Origin: a virus
Lineage: Duplodnaviria; Heunggongvirae; Uroviricota; Caudoviricetes
DNA: 64,000 nucleotides
Virus record (IMG/VR): IMGVR_UViG_3300015615_000629
Location: 368,711 to 432,710 of that record
Reading direction: 5' to 3' (one strand)
Shown: positions 47,590 through 60,853 of the stretch, one piece after another
How positions within the stretch are numbered: position 1 is the stretch's first letter
How the letters are laid out: every line of letters starts with the position of its first letter
Position numbers and translations under genes: made by a program
The notes under the pieces: model-generated
The model's database searches: none
Told to the model about the DNA's origin: nothing
Seen by the model: only the letters and a program-made list of their open reading frames with translations

Positions 47590-47752
47590 CTTGCTTATTC
47601 CTTTGAGCGTTTTCCAATGCCGCCCGAATAGCGGCTATTTTATTTGAGAATTGCCCTGGCCACAGTTTGTTGTTCTCAAGTTCATAAGCCAAGGTTTCAG
47701 CAGTTGCCGCTACTTCTCTTAAGTAGTTTGCCGCAATTTTATCGTTATTCAT
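47576..47752 (-). CDS. hypothetical protein (58 aa)
   Basis: Hand translation MNNDKIAANYLREVAATAETLAYELENNKLWPGQFSNKIAAIRAALENAQRNKQDARV fills the gap. Confidence 0.55.
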   Translation of the reverse strand: MNNDKIAANYLREVAATAETLAYELENNKLWPGQFSNKIAAIRAALENAQRNKQDARV

Positions 47753-48089
47753 GTCCTAATGCATCCATTATTTTCTTTAATGTCGCTTGATTTGGATTAT
47801 GTTGTCCATTTTCAATCTTTGACAAATGACTTTGTGGGATTTGGGTTTGGTAGGATAAGGCGTTTTGGGTTAATCCTCTCTTAATGCGTGCCTCTCTAAT
47901 AGAGGAACCAACTCCATTATTTCGACGAACGACCTGACAGCCCAACGTCCCGGCCGAAACGCCTTCTGGAAAGACGATATTAAAGAAAGTGGATCTTATT
48001 TGATCCCGCGTTTCTTCATCGGTTGTTTTATAAAATAAAGAACGAAGTTCTCGAAGATTCTCGACTTCATTATCCGTCAGATAATTCAT
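47745..48089 (-). CDS. XRE-family HTH regulator
   Basis: IREARIKRGLTQNALS...IPQSHLSKIENGQHNP. Confidence 0.85.
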   Translation of the reverse strand: MNYLTDNEVENLRELRSLFYKTTDEETRDQIRSTFFNIVFPEGVSAGTLGCQVVRRNNGVGSSIREARIKRGLTQNALSYQTQIPQSHLSKIENGQHNPNQATLKKIMDALGHE

Positions 48090-48798
48090 CTAACGTGTCC
48101 TCCCACATTGTTCCGCCACGTAGTTCTAGTTCCTCCATGAATTCTTTGTGTAATCTTTGTCTTTCTAATTCTTGTTCTCGGGGCAACGTTGGTGCATTTC
48201 CACTAAGACTGTCTAACAATTGTTGCTGATCTTGTCTCTGTTTGTCAGACATACCGTCCAGTAGTCTTTGCGGTGTGGTGAAGTTATAATGTGCCCGTTG
48301 AAAATCTCTGAATTTTACTTGAGCTAATTCTACTAATTCTTCAAGGCTATCAACAATGACAATTGGCTCATATTCGTGCTCTAAAGCAAGCTGTTTCCTA
48401 ACATCGAACGCTCTGGGATAGTCGGGATGAGTTCCAACAATAATTCGTTTGGCTGCTTGCTCATGTCCTGAATATTTACCTAATTCAAATAATGTTATCG
48501 GCTGAAGAATATCAGCACAAAACCAGAAAATAATTAAATCTGAATCCCTCAGATTTTGCCATTCCCATTCAATTTGACGTTCTGATACGGAAATGTCATT
48601 TATATCAAAATCTTTGCGACGAGGATTTACAACTACAAGACCTTCTGTGTTTTTCCACTTGCTTATTAATTCCTTGGCGGTCTGTTGCCAATCCGGACAG
48701 TTTGTAATTCCGCCAGCTAGAAAAATCCGCCATTCTCGCCAGTTATACGGATGATCTTCAGGTGCTTCTACGTATTTCAAATTTAAATCCTTTTTCAA
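48070..48798 (-). CDS. nucleoside 2-deoxyribosyltransferase-like protein
   Basis: IFLAGGITNCPDWQ, NPRR, RQIEWE, SDLIIFWF, PITLFELG. Confidence 0.8.
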   Translation of the reverse strand: MKKDLNLKYVEAPEDHPYNWREWRIFLAGGITNCPDWQQTAKELISKWKNTEGLVVVNPRRKDFDINDISVSERQIEWEWQNLRDSDLIIFWFCADILQPITLFELGKYSGHEQAAKRIIVGTHPDYPRAFDVRKQLALEHEYEPIVIVDSLEELVELAQVKFRDFQRAHYNFTTPQRLLDGMSDKQRQDQQQLLDSLSGNAPTLPREQELERQRLHKEFMEELELRGGTMWEDTLDELSDG

Positions 48799-49020: not shown

Positions 49021-49050
49021 AAAAAAGGCTGCCAAATTGGCAGCCTTTTT
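49021..49050 (-). terminator. intrinsic terminator after PEP-CTERM gene
   Basis: AAAAAAGGCTGCCA-aat-TGGCAGCCTTTTT. Confidence 0.8.
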
Positions 49051-49066
49051 GTCAATTTCAGAAAAT

Positions 49067-49771
49067 TCAGTTTTTCAATTTCCAAAATATCAACCCAACC
49101 CCGGCCATAACAGCGAGCACGAGACTAGATGGTTCGGGAATGTAGAAAAAGACATTACCGGAAATAATGAATTCGGTTCCTGCTCCGACACTAATGGGTA
49201 GTTCATCATTGGTGTTGGCATCTACCCCAACGATAAGGCTTCCCAAACCTCCTATTCCGATAAAATTCCAATCCCAAGCATTCATCTGGTTTCGAATAAA
49301 AGTGTCCGTCGCAAACGTGTTAAAAGGATTGCCCAACGCAGGCTGTGCCCAACTGATAATCAGCTGGTCAAGATTGATAACGGACAATGTAGAATCCGGA
49401 AAGGTTGCTGTCTCGCTGGGGTTAACAGAAACAGGATCTGTAAGTTCAAAATCTGACGAAAACATCGTCGCAGATCCGATTTTACCGTTGAGTCCCCCAA
49501 CTTGGAAATAGACATCCTGAACATCTTCGGAGTTATTTACGATATTGAGGTTTTTGACTTGCATATCATTGAAGTCAAAAACCACCCCAAAGGAATTGAT
49601 GTTGAGATTATCGGAGTGTAAGAGATTCGGCACAGGGTCGCCTGTAACCGTTGGGGTGTTTGAGTTTCCATCCCAAGTTAGGGTAAACTCAAACGACGTA
49701 CTGTAAAGCGGTGCGGCGGCAGCTGTTGAAGCAAACAAAACCGCAAACAGACAAACCAGTGTGCGAATCAC
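49067..49771 (-). CDS. PEP-CTERM sorting-domain surface protein
   Basis: Signal peptide ending AAAA; C-terminal IPEPSSLVLAVMAGVGLIFWKLKN; AAGGAAAG SD. Confidence 0.85.
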   Translation of the reverse strand: MIRTLVCLFAVLFASTAAAAPLYSTSFEFTLTWDGNSNTPTVTGDPVPNLLHSDNLNINSFGVVFDFNDMQVKNLNIVNNSEDVQDVYFQVGGLNGKIGSATMFSSDFELTDPVSVNPSETATFPDSTLSVINLDQLIISWAQPALGNPFNTFATDTFIRNQMNAWDWNFIGIGGLGSLIVGVDANTNDELPISVGAGTEFIISGNVFFYIPEPSSLVLAVMAGVGLIFWKLKN

Positions 49772-49817
49772 TAGACTTTCCTTAGAAAAAGGGGCGCAGA
49801 GTAGCGGAATAGACCAT

Positions 49818-49845
49818 ATCTTAGCACAACTGGAAATGTTGTCAA
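49818..49845 (-). promoter_or_regulatory. sigma70-type early promoter
   Basis: TTGACA-16nt-TAAGAT with TTGTGC. Confidence 0.75.
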
Positions 49846-49936
49846 GAAAAATTTTAAGTCCTTAGACACAAAGGACTTACGCCCAAGACCGCAAGCGGAG
49901 ACTCCATTTCTGGCTTTTGTCTTACTATATGAGTGA

Positions 49937-54079: not shown

Positions 54080-54232
54080 ATGAAACGCGGCGGAAATGAC
54101 TTTTTTGCGATGTCTGTTGCCACCTTTGGCATGATCGCCATTGGCATTTCTTACGGCGGTATTTTAGGCGGGTTGGTTGGCCTTTCCGTTGGTGTCGCTA
54201 CCACTACACTTGCCACGAAATTAAACAAATAA
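54080..54232 (+). CDS. small Gly-rich membrane protein
   Basis: GGGAGA SD; two GxxxG helices. Confidence 0.55.
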   Translation: MKRGGNDFFAMSVATFGMIAIGISYGGILGGLVGLSVGVATTTLATKLNK

Positions 54233-55137
54233 TGCTCTTAAAAGACCTACAAGATAGAAAAATTATCCACCCTCCGAGCTGGTTGCCTGACAACACTGTC
54301 TTTCTGGCAGTTGTCGGCTCCAATGCTTATGGCACTGCTACGGATACTTCTGATTTCGATATTTTTGGAATTGCCATCCCTAAGAAGGAATCGGTATTTC
54401 CACATCTGGCCGGTGTAATTCAAGGATTTGGAACTCAAATCGAACAATTTAATCAATGGCCACTTAAAAGCGAAAAAAGTAAGTGTTTTGACCCCGATGC
54501 TCTTGGAGGCAAGGGCAGAGAATACGATTTTACAATTCATAATATCGTAAAGTATTTTCAACTTTGCATGGAAAACAATGCAAATTGTTTGGATACATTA
54601 TTCGTTCCCTACGAATGTATTTTGCACTCAACTCAAGTTGGAAATATGATTCGAGAAAACAGAAAGTTATTCTTGAGTAAAGAATGTCTGGTTAAGTTTA
54701 AAGGCTATGCATTTGGGCAGATGCATAAAATGCGAACAAAAGAACCAACAGGCAAACGCAAAAAAACTAGGGATGCCTTCGGATACGATACGAAATTTGC
54801 AATGCATCTTGTGCGCCTTCTGGGAGAGTGTGAGCAAATTTTGACAATCGGCGAGATAGATCTAAGAAGGAACAACGAGCATCACAAAGCAATTCGCCGT
54901 GGTGAGGTTCCTCAAGAAGAAGTTATTGCTTGGGCTCAAGCCAAAGAGCGTCAACTTGAGGAATTAGCAGTAAAATCTGATTTGCCACAAAAAGCAGATG
55001 AGAAAGCAATTAAACAATTGTTACTTAATTGCTTAGAGCACCATTATGGTTCTCTCAAGGAAGCCATTGTTGTTCCAGACAACTATTTGTCTGGACTTAG
55101 AGAAATAAAACAAATTTTAGATAAGATTGGAGTTTGA
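54232..55137 (+). CDS. Pol-beta-superfamily nucleotidyltransferase (RlaP-like)
   Basis: VVGSNAYGTATDTSDFDIFGI (GS...DxD), N.N..D.LF, YDTKFAMHLVRLL. Confidence 0.85.
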   Translation: MLLKDLQDRKIIHPPSWLPDNTVFLAVVGSNAYGTATDTSDFDIFGIAIPKKESVFPHLAGVIQGFGTQIEQFNQWPLKSEKSKCFDPDALGGKGREYDFTIHNIVKYFQLCMENNANCLDTLFVPYECILHSTQVGNMIRENRKLFLSKECLVKFKGYAFGQMHKMRTKEPTGKRKKTRDAFGYDTKFAMHLVRLLGECEQILTIGEIDLRRNNEHHKAIRRGEVPQEEVIAWAQAKERQLEELAVKSDLPQKADEKAIKQLLLNCLEHHYGSLKEAIVVPDNYLSGLREIKQILDKIGV

Positions 55138-56595: not shown

Positions 56596-57315
56596 TCAAA
56601 AATTATTTATCATAGCGTACAAATCGTCTAAATTCTTAATTGTATCGTTATGTGGAGCAACCATCAAAATATTATTGGGATTCATGATAAAGTAAGTTAA
56701 TCCTCCCAAGTCACCGGATTCTTTTCTTATTTTCCTAGATTCTGTAAAGACCATTGCGTCGTAACCGCTCTTTTTTATCTCATCTACAAATTGTGGCTTG
56801 TCTAAAAGCCACCAAATATCTTCCATTGCCAATTTAGTCTTTTTTGTTCCGTTATAAGAATTGACTAATTGTAGTCCTATTTTTTTTGCGGTTAATGGAA
56901 TATTGTTAACATTTAACGGATTCTCTACTTTGCAATAAGCGTCATAAACCTTATAATCTCTGCCATATTTCGATCTATTGCTTCCAAAATAATTAGCGAT
57001 TGGCTTGGAGTTCGTCATAAAGACTCCAAGATTTTCTACGTCATACATTGCACCTAAAAATCCCAAACTTCTTTTTCCTGGCATGGGTTTTAATTCTTTT
57101 AAATCCATATTTGGAGAGCCATGATGCAATAGGATTGGATTAGAAGTGCCGAGTTTCTTAGCATAGCCTTCTCTATTAATTTCTTTAACCCAATTAAGGA
57201 CATTTTCTCGTCCTGCTGGGCCGATTTGTTTTAATCTATCGTTAAATTCTTGTTGAGAGTTTATTCCCTGCAGTTCTTGAGGTAACATAGACTCTAGCCA
57301 CAACTTAAACTCCAT
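56596..57315 (-). CDS. ADP-ribosyltransferase-like protein (ART-PolyVal-like) with capsid-targeting-like N-terminus
   Basis: LHHGS, GVFMTNS..IANYFG, VYDAYCKVENPL, GYDAMVF; MEFKLWLE start. Confidence 0.65.
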   Translation of the reverse strand: MEFKLWLESMLPQELQGINSQQEFNDRLKQIGPAGRENVLNWVKEINREGYAKKLGTSNPILLHHGSPNMDLKELKPMPGKRSLGFLGAMYDVENLGVFMTNSKPIANYFGSNRSKYGRDYKVYDAYCKVENPLNVNNIPLTAKKIGLQLVNSYNGTKKTKLAMEDIWWLLDKPQFVDEIKKSGYDAMVFTESRKIRKESGDLGGLTYFIMNPNNILMVAPHNDTIKNLDDLYAMINNF

Positions 57316-59583: not shown

Positions 59584-60182
59584 AATACCTAATTTCTTCG
59601 CATGCTAACTATTATCAAAAAACACTTCCTAAGATACTTGCATCTTTAAATTCGGAAAATGTTATCGTAACGATTGGTGGCGTTAAACAGATTTCCGAGG
59701 ACTACGGTGTCCAAGTAGATTGTGTAGAGTATAACAGTTTTGAGTATGTAAGCCTGATTAATTTTGTTGAAAAAGGCTATAAAAGTGATTTTGTATTTTT
59801 ATTACACGATACAATGTCTTGCGGAGATAAATTTATTGAATTATCTAAGAACTTCAATCCAGAGTTTAACGCCACAATGGCTCACCCAAAAGGCTTCTGT
59901 AACCTGGGTGTGTTTAAAGTAGAATATCTACAGGAGATAAAGCCTAAATTGTTGAAAATGAAGGACATGAGCAAAAGAGAGGCGATTCGTCTAGAAGGAA
60001 AATTCTTTAGACCAAATTTCACTACTTACCCAAATGCTGTATCTGAAAAAATAGAGATAAAAGACGTTTATGACACGGGAACTTTGAGATCCGTTGATCA
60101 TTACAAGGCAGTAAATATTTATAAATACGGAGCGAACAGTAGAAAAACATTACGTGCAGGAAAGATAATACTAGACCTATGA
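59580..60182 (+). CDS. glycosyltransferase-like protein
   Basis: ISSH..Y..KTLP, YNSFEY, FLLHDT. Confidence 0.5.
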   Translation: MKYLISSHANYYQKTLPKILASLNSENVIVTIGGVKQISEDYGVQVDCVEYNSFEYVSLINFVEKGYKSDFVFLLHDTMSCGDKFIELSKNFNPEFNATMAHPKGFCNLGVFKVEYLQEIKPKLLKMKDMSKREAIRLEGKFFRPNFTTYPNAVSEKIEIKDVYDTGTLRSVDHYKAVNIYKYGANSRKTLRAGKIILDL

Positions 60183-60853
60183 TTCCGCTTGTAATCAATA
60201 ACAGAAACCGTCTAACTACATTGAAAGCAATGATTAATTGGTTTTCTGATTTAAAGATTATAATTCTAGATAACGACTCGACTTATCCGCCATTGCTGGA
60301 ATATTATAAAGAAATCGACGCGGAAGTGGTTTTCATGGGTAAAAATTATGGCCATACGGTTCTATACCAATGGAAAGGCCATCTCAACTTCCCAGAAAGG
60401 TATTTCTTATATTCCGATTCAGATGTTGTTCCTAGAGAAGATTGCCCGAAAGACTTAGTGGAATACCTTCTAAATGCGAAAAAAACCTATCCTGGGGCGA
60501 GAAAAATAGGAGTCGCCTTGGAAATCAACGATCTGCCAGAAACCGAATTGAGAAACGAAATAATTAGTTGGGAATCTAAGTTCTGGAAACAGAAATATGA
60601 TGATTTCTTCATAGCCGATGTGGATACTACTCTGGCAATTTATGACAACACCACATGTCATTCTCATGGTATTTCAAATAGTTTAAGAACTAATTATCCA
60701 TACGTAGCCAGACATCTTCCTTGGTACACCAAAGTTCTTAGCTACGAAGATAGATATTATATCAAAAATGCCGATGCTAAATTGCCAAATGGCAAACTTG
60801 TAGGAATGTGGACGCAAAAGATGCATAGACTGCGAAAACTACGCATTTTATAG
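60179..60853 (+). CDS. GT2-like glycosyltransferase
   Basis: IINNRNRLTTL, ILDNDSTYPPLLEYY, YSDSDV, ADVDTT, ARHLPWY. Confidence 0.7.
   Translation: MIPLVINNRNRLTTLKAMINWFSDLKIIILDNDSTYPPLLEYYKEIDAEVVFMGKNYGHTVLYQWKGHLNFPERYFLYSDSDVVPREDCPKDLVEYLLNAKKTYPGARKIGVALEINDLPETELRNEIISWESKFWKQKYDDFFIADVDTTLAIYDNTTCHSHGISNSLRTNYPYVARHLPWYTKVLSYEDRYYIKNADAKLPNGKLVGMWTQKMHRLRKLRIL

Follow-up and report, generated by a model that had tools for sequence, protein, structure and literature searches.

The stretch of DNA analysed here (the window) comprises 64,000 nt, bases 368,711-432,710 of a 572,167-bp IMG/VR phage record (G000), and carries on its minus strand a compact cassette built around a single open reading frame (ORF), whose product is referred to below as the window protein (P0001). 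Read in the direction of transcription, the cassette consists of the following elements:

49855..49879, minus: perfect 9+9-bp palindrome, TAAGTCCTT-N7-AAGGACTTA, directly upstream of the promoter
49846..49854, minus: A/T tract AAATTTTTC, read from the sequence, which abuts the -35 hexamer and is putatively UP-element-like
49818..49845, minus: sigma-70-type promoter TTGACA-N16-TAAGAT with a TG extended -10, scoring 10/12, the top site in a 2-kb scan
49777..49784, minus: Shine-Dalgarno-like sequence AAGGAAAG, read from the sequence, 5 nt ahead of the GTG
49067-49771, minus: PEP-CTERM-type ORF of 234 aa with a GTG start
49712..49771, minus: signal peptide, ~residues 1-20, with Arg3, a hydrophobic core and an Ala-rich cleavage region
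49142..49711, minus: mature body, ~residues 21-210, acidic, S/T/N/D-rich and predicted all-beta
49070..49141, minus: PEP-CTERM-type tail, residues 211-234, with Y-I-P-E-P-S-S, a 16-residue hydrophobic helix and K-L-K-N
49022..49050, minus: intrinsic terminator with a 13-14-bp stem (6 GC pairs), a 1-3-nt loop and a T run

The original prediction had described this region as a self-contained unit, and the ORF, Shine-Dalgarno sequence, signal peptide and S/T/N/D-rich body that it named, together with its promoter, inverted repeat and terminator, were all recovered where it had placed them. By inspection and hydropathy, the N-terminus of the window protein matches the layout of a Sec signal peptide: residues 1-22 reach a Kyte-Doolittle peak of 2.36, and the core at residues 4-15 is followed by an A-A-A-A-P region. 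The mature body is strongly biased in composition, with S, T, N and D making up 37% of its residues versus 23% across the phage proteome, K and R accounting for 3 of 188 residues, a pI of 4.05 and no Cys. At the C-terminus, I-P-E-P-S-S occupies residues 212-217 of 234 and supplies the near-invariant Pro-Glu-Pro of PEP-CTERM tails, directly followed by a hydrophobic segment (residues 214-232, hydropathy peak 2.29) in which AF2 places a helix at residues 216-233. The protein thus combines an N-terminal signal peptide with a transmembrane helix after the PEP motif, both characteristic of PEP-CTERM proteins. These features support a self-contained, phage-resident gene for a protein predicted to be Sec-exported and to end in a PEP-CTERM-type tail.

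Sites resembling the cassette promoter occur throughout the phage genome, where ~17 fit TTGACA-N12-13-[TC]GTGCTAnnAT; almost every one is on the minus strand and precedes a gene, and three stand before tRNA arrays. Their distribution places the cassette promoter in a genome-wide, host-type class (sigma-70, extended -10), and recognition by the unmodified host polymerase would fit early or constitutive expression. Upstream of genes, the T4 late-promoter motif TATAAATA shows no enrichment (2 of 24 occurrences), and the promoter class is therefore not readable from T4 rules alone. Among the listed public runs, there was no RNA dataset carrying the stretch. For the inverted repeat TAAGTCCTT/AAGGACTTA at 49855-49879, 1 match was obtained versus 0.08 expected by chance. 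The palindrome also recurs: G000 holds six copies including that of the window (two exact, two with one mismatch and two with two mismatches; chance expectation ~0.01). Examples of the promoter class and the other palindrome copies are located as follows:

G000 116865, 302298, 343569 and 418528, all minus: examples of the promoter class
G000:295951-295975, 259959, 475593, 77930 and 124077: other copies of the palindrome

The second exact copy of the palindrome lies 4 nt from a tRNA-Ser gene, one two-mismatch copy precedes a further promoter of this class, and three copies fall inside ORFs. The element is a candidate operator, RNA hairpin or nuclease site. Directly downstream of the cassette terminator, window 47745-48798 (minus) contains a 67-aa ORF and two genes with Pfam matches: one is nucleoside 2-deoxyribosyltransferase-like (PF15891, 63 bits), and the other, at 47745-48089, encodes an XRE-type HTH protein (PF01381, 51 bits) that is a candidate binder of the palindrome.

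The carrier genome has a 141-bp direct terminal repeat, a CheckV completeness of 100 and a GC content of 39.6%, and its major capsid protein is of the T4 type (Pfam Gp23, 282.6 bits, above the cut-off), which identifies the carrier as a T4-type, terminally redundant phage. Relatives of this capsid protein are found on 404 IMG/VR contigs, the best 80 of the 404 at 74-80% identity. The closest complete published relative is an uncultured 595-kb phage, LR756511.1, with a 70% identical capsid protein, for which the main text of Al-Shayeb 2020 (PMC7162821) names no host. ARAGORN detected 40 tRNAs in the genome, all on the minus strand; two of them (G000:30802-30894 and 286239-286310, minus), with anticodons CTA and TCA, are potential amber and opal suppressors, and despite these the coding density in a crude call under table 11 is ~92%. 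The exosortase models TIGR02602 and PF09721 returned no match in the window or in the whole 572-kb genome, so that the absence of an exosortase noted for the window in the original prediction extends to the entire phage. Any processing must therefore be the host's. Searching the phage for a T9SS C-terminal domain gave no match.

Searching 1.84 billion representative proteins with HMMER, we recovered only two homologues of the window protein (P0002 and P0003), both encoded on related phage DNA; a word-indexed search of 5.8 billion proteins returned the same P0002, and there were no homologues in IMG/VR, INPHARED phages or PHROGs. P0002 is 44% identical to P0001 over 94% of the length and is encoded on an 8.7-kb contig (L003) that also specifies a phage head protein (phrog_240, PF23140 Gp80). 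Genes of L003 match G000 at ~232-234 kb (76% DNA identity) and at ~204-205 kb, and its cassette lies in a different gene neighbourhood, with its own TTGACG-16-TAGAAT promoter upstream and a hairpin downstream. P0003 is a fragment, 69% identical to P0001, on a 708-bp contig (L004) that retains the divergently transcribed 80-aa neighbour of the cassette (56% aa identity) as well as both AGGAAA and the GTG start. On L004 the palindrome arms are 100% conserved and reach 11 bp around a loop that differs; no base is changed in the A/T tract or the -35 hexamer, and the promoter core is 78% identical between L004 and the window versus 65-70% in the flanking coding DNA. A segment equivalent to the signal peptide is present in both P0002 and P0003.

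Parts of the stretch are matched by short contigs of low depth from three further metagenome studies (wastewater, freshwater and aquatic), none of which bridges the whole cassette; one study has 188 nt of the gene at 100% identity, and another has pieces of the gene, the promoter and both neighbours at ~90% identity. On one aquatic contig that is ~90% identical, 77 nt (window 49173-49251, ~residues 174-199) are swapped for 74 unrelated letters, which points to a putative hypervariable patch in the body. PF07589 had no match in LR756511.1 or in 16 related phage fragments that are 9-69% complete and for which this short HMM is insensitive; the cassette is therefore not universal in the lineage and presumably dispensable to it. 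Taken together, the contexts on L003 and L004 and the metagenome pieces reject an assembly chimera and show the cassette to be an accessory element of one sub-lineage, mobile and quick to diverge.

The PEP-CTERM layout and its sorting system are used here as defined by Haft et al. 2006 (PMC1569441). Against PF07589, the window protein scores 14.5 bits in hmmscan and 18.5 bits in the genome search (cut-off 20.7), and against TIGR02595 it scores 14.2 bits (cut-off 16); these values stay below the cut-offs because the basic cluster is thin, consisting merely of K-x-K. The basic end reads K-L-K-N in the window protein versus R-R-R-K-S in the orthologue P0002, whose tail (Y-I-P-E-P-S-T-L-V...R-R-R-K-S) exceeds both cut-offs, with 24.3 bits for PF07589 and, for the tail alone, 19.1 versus 16 for TIGR02595. 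The motif, helix and end of the IPEPSS-TM-KLKN tail described in the original prediction are therefore all present, though at sub-cut-off HMM scores. Between P0001 and P0002, the segment Y-I-P-E-P-S-x-L-V-x-A is retained while the remaining helix drifts, despite an overall identity of 44%; conservation amid such drift favours a recognition motif, since a plain anchor would not require it. An ESM Atlas feature search found the Pfam PEP-CTERM annotation on 82 of the 100 nearest clusters, with a top score of 0.93. On this basis we count the family among the PEP-CTERM proteins, the window copy being a member whose basic end is weakened. The model of the flocculation protein PepA, NF033554 (floc_PepA, cut-off 80), gave 12.2 bits for the tail piece P0001:195-234, no match to the whole window protein at E <= 1, and a weak full-length alignment to P0002 (15.1 bits, E 0.015).

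A second PEP-CTERM gene is located at G000:139643-140712 on the minus strand (locus L001:1444-2513) and encodes a signal peptide, an SGNH/GDSL esterase, two dockerin repeats and a tail composed of L-I-P-E-P-S-T-Y, a hydrophobic stretch and R. One frameshift splits this gene near G000:140,400 and could be a sequencing error, the mark of a pseudogene or recoding. A regular-expression scan of all phage ORFs revealed no third case. With two tagged genes in one phage, the tag is therefore used on two unrelated bodies.

The second protein also provides a hint of the host. Among 301 sampled Planctomycetota genomes, 10 contain a multi-copy tail module to which the dockerin-PEP tail of this protein shows 35-49% identity, and a pattern search of genome contigs with the same protein gave a single match, in a Phycisphaerales MAG with two exosortases. 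A Planctomycetota host is thereby hinted at but is contradicted by GC content, which would have to bridge ~60% in the genomes with look-alike tails and 39.6% in the phage. The phage additionally encodes an unrelated ~935-aa frame (G000 ~249,450-252,260, minus; locus L099) that ends in a double dockerin-like module, with DGxxDGLDYxxWADxFG present twice, and has no PEP-CTERM tail; this frame may be a structural or fibre protein. Given this second dockerin module of the phage's own, the similarity to Planctomycetota tails may reflect the dockerin and not the host.

AF2 models of the body, with pLDDT values of 61.6 and 63.3, consist mostly of strands and are jelly-roll-like at modest confidence. 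Foldseek comparison of these models with the PDB gave no match at E <= 0.001; matches among AFDB clusters reached TM <= 0.26 and included several named PEP-CTERM/VPLPA-CTERM proteins, too weak for use; and an ESM Atlas structure search of the body reached TM <= 0.33. A wide VIA-align search yielded generic jelly-rolls with a best Z of 5.8, Z < 8 being background for that search. The body is without a recognisable fold relative and forms an orphan family of three known members. As no fold match rises above background, only composition and the address tags give a basis for inferring what the body does.

Considered together, the tags suggest that the phage probably sends a protein of its own to the surface of the infected cell via the host sorting route. 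The cassette would be an accessory ("moron"-type) unit of a huge T4-like phage, transcribed by host RNA polymerase from the strong sigma-70/extended -10 promoter as far as its own terminator. The 234-aa product would be Sec-exported and its signal peptide removed, after which the C-terminal helix would anchor it to the inner membrane, leaving the acidic, putatively beta-sandwich body in the periplasm. At the membrane edge, I-P-E-P-S would serve as the recognition site for a matching exosortase that we infer the host to possess. By analogy with sortase and LPXTG, this enzyme would cut off the anchor and release the body to the outer surface or the exopolysaccharide layer. The displayed protein would most likely alter the cell surface, such that adsorption of further phages is blocked or the matrix is changed. 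To our knowledge, exosortase cleavage has not been reconstituted biochemically, even with bacterial substrates. For the whole chain of export, PEP cleavage by a host exosortase, delivery to the surface or extracellular matrix, and altered adsorption or aggregation, we see about even chances.

The main alternative is that the tail is no more than an anchor: the product would then stay in the periplasm, held by its C-terminus, without encountering an exosortase, and would act, for instance, in superinfection exclusion or lysis timing, as do T4 Imm, Sp and RI. T4-like phages make early envelope proteins, small in the case of Imm, Sp and RI of T4, and the sub-cut-off tail with its weak basic cluster, as well as the lack of a phage exosortase, would suit such a role. 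The PEP-S motif and its flanks are nevertheless kept between orthologues that share 44% identity, one of which has a canonical tail with RRRK; a second protein of the same phage bears the same tag; and neither in sequence nor in fold does the window protein resemble Imm, Sp or RI. We consider an anchor without sorting unlikely, while granting that it has some weight.

A further reading retains the host exosortase: as a decoy substrate produced in bulk early in infection, the protein would occupy the enzyme, leaving host PEP-CTERM surface or matrix proteins, possibly receptors or floc components, undisplayed. The strong promoter with its UP-like tract, the fast divergence of a body without a conserved function-bearing fold and the presence of the tag on two different phage proteins would all agree with this. 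A decoy, however, has no need of a conserved folded body of 190 residues, in which blocks such as W-D-G-x-S-N-x-P and V-F-D-F are invariant, and we regard it as very unlikely.

In favour of an assembly chimera, or of a freshly captured and non-functional host gene, the window gene stands out mildly in composition: its GC content of 44.7% and GC3 of 46.0% lie ~1.4-1.7 SD over the phage mean, and its codon-usage divergence is at the 91st percentile. In GC content, both PEP-CTERM genes lie slightly above the phage as a whole (~45%, z ~+1.4), an excess compatible with an old foreign origin. A recent host gene is opposed by the lack of any cellular homologue among the 1.84 billion representatives, and by the intact frame and conserved motifs. 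The original prediction had itself held that read mapping might expose the region as a chimeric host insert; the neighbour and promoter shared with L004 in conserved synteny, and the orthologue next to a phage head protein on L003, reject that case. This explanation is accordingly highly improbable. Least credible of all is an accessory role in the virion or tail fibre, with a jelly-roll domain for receptor binding. The weak top rows of the fold search are jelly-rolls, among them viral capsid, TNF/C1q-like and cyanophage tail-fibre domains, but they lie within its background; a cleavable signal peptide and a C-terminal membrane helix are not expected in a virion protein of a tailed phage; and the gene, placed behind a host-type promoter in the company of small early-type genes, is ~50 kb away from that for the capsid.

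Display by the host exosortase may be taken one step further in view of the genes around the cassette. A GT2-like ORF is found at window 60179-60853, ~10 kb from the cassette, and radical-SAM and carbamoyltransferase genes at window 61.6-63.9 kb; the link between the cassette and such glycan genes is one of proximity only. Elsewhere in the window are an RlaP-type nucleotidyltransferase (54232-55137, plus; 64.8 bits) and an ART-PolyVal ADP-ribosyltransferase-like ORF (56596-57315, minus; 31.1 bits, at the cut-off). The PEP-CTERM protein might be the scaffold of a phage-specified surface coat that the nearby glycan genes decorate and the host exosortase displays, with the conserved palindrome as the operator of a small phage regulon that sets the timing. 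We hold this extended scheme to be quite unlikely; if true, the infected cell would be re-surfaced, and competing phages would be excluded or aggregation changed.

The PEP-CTERM/exosortase system is a widespread bacterial route of surface display that is tied to exopolysaccharide, flocs and biofilms and is biochemically poorly characterised. A phage with substrates but without the enzyme would exploit this route from outside. Since the host of a carrier phage needs an exosortase that matches, these cassettes could mark host range; they could also be compact natural probes of exosortase specificity, and may account for the changes in aggregation or adsorption that phages bring about in communities of wastewater and freshwater. 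In the literature, we found no paper describing phage-encoded PEP-CTERM substrates; one preprint mentions such a domain for a mobile element of Dehalococcoides. The moraphage paper (PMC12619734) is unrelated.

PEP-CTERM substrates themselves are a known bacterial kind. With the substrates of the bacterial PEP-CTERM/exosortase (EpsH, XrtA) system (TIGR02595, PF07589; PMC1569441), the window protein shares the signal peptide, the PEP motif and the helix, as well as a diverse, low-homology body with few charges, an occurrence in more than one copy per genome and a location near sugar-handling genes. Unlike those substrates, it is encoded by a phage without an exosortase, its basic cluster after the helix is reduced to K-x-K, its tail remains under the cut-offs, and its body has no cellular homologue. 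PepA of Zoogloea resiniphila (NF033554; Gao et al. 2018, ref. 37 of PMC12642866) is a flocculation-associated PEP-CTERM protein of ~250 aa which is required together with exopolysaccharide for bacterial cell aggregation. Both are small, secreted PEP-CTERM proteins, and the window protein, scoring below 80, is not a member of NF033554. The likeness to the textbook proteins Imm and Sp of T4 lies in a T4-type phage, a small product directed to the membrane or periplasm, a host-type promoter and a plausible role in phage exclusion; in contrast to them, the window protein would be anchored by a sorting-signal tail and not by N-terminal helices. The present instance contributes a huge T4-like carrier, a new three-member protein family, and a conserved promoter and palindrome that make the regulation testable.
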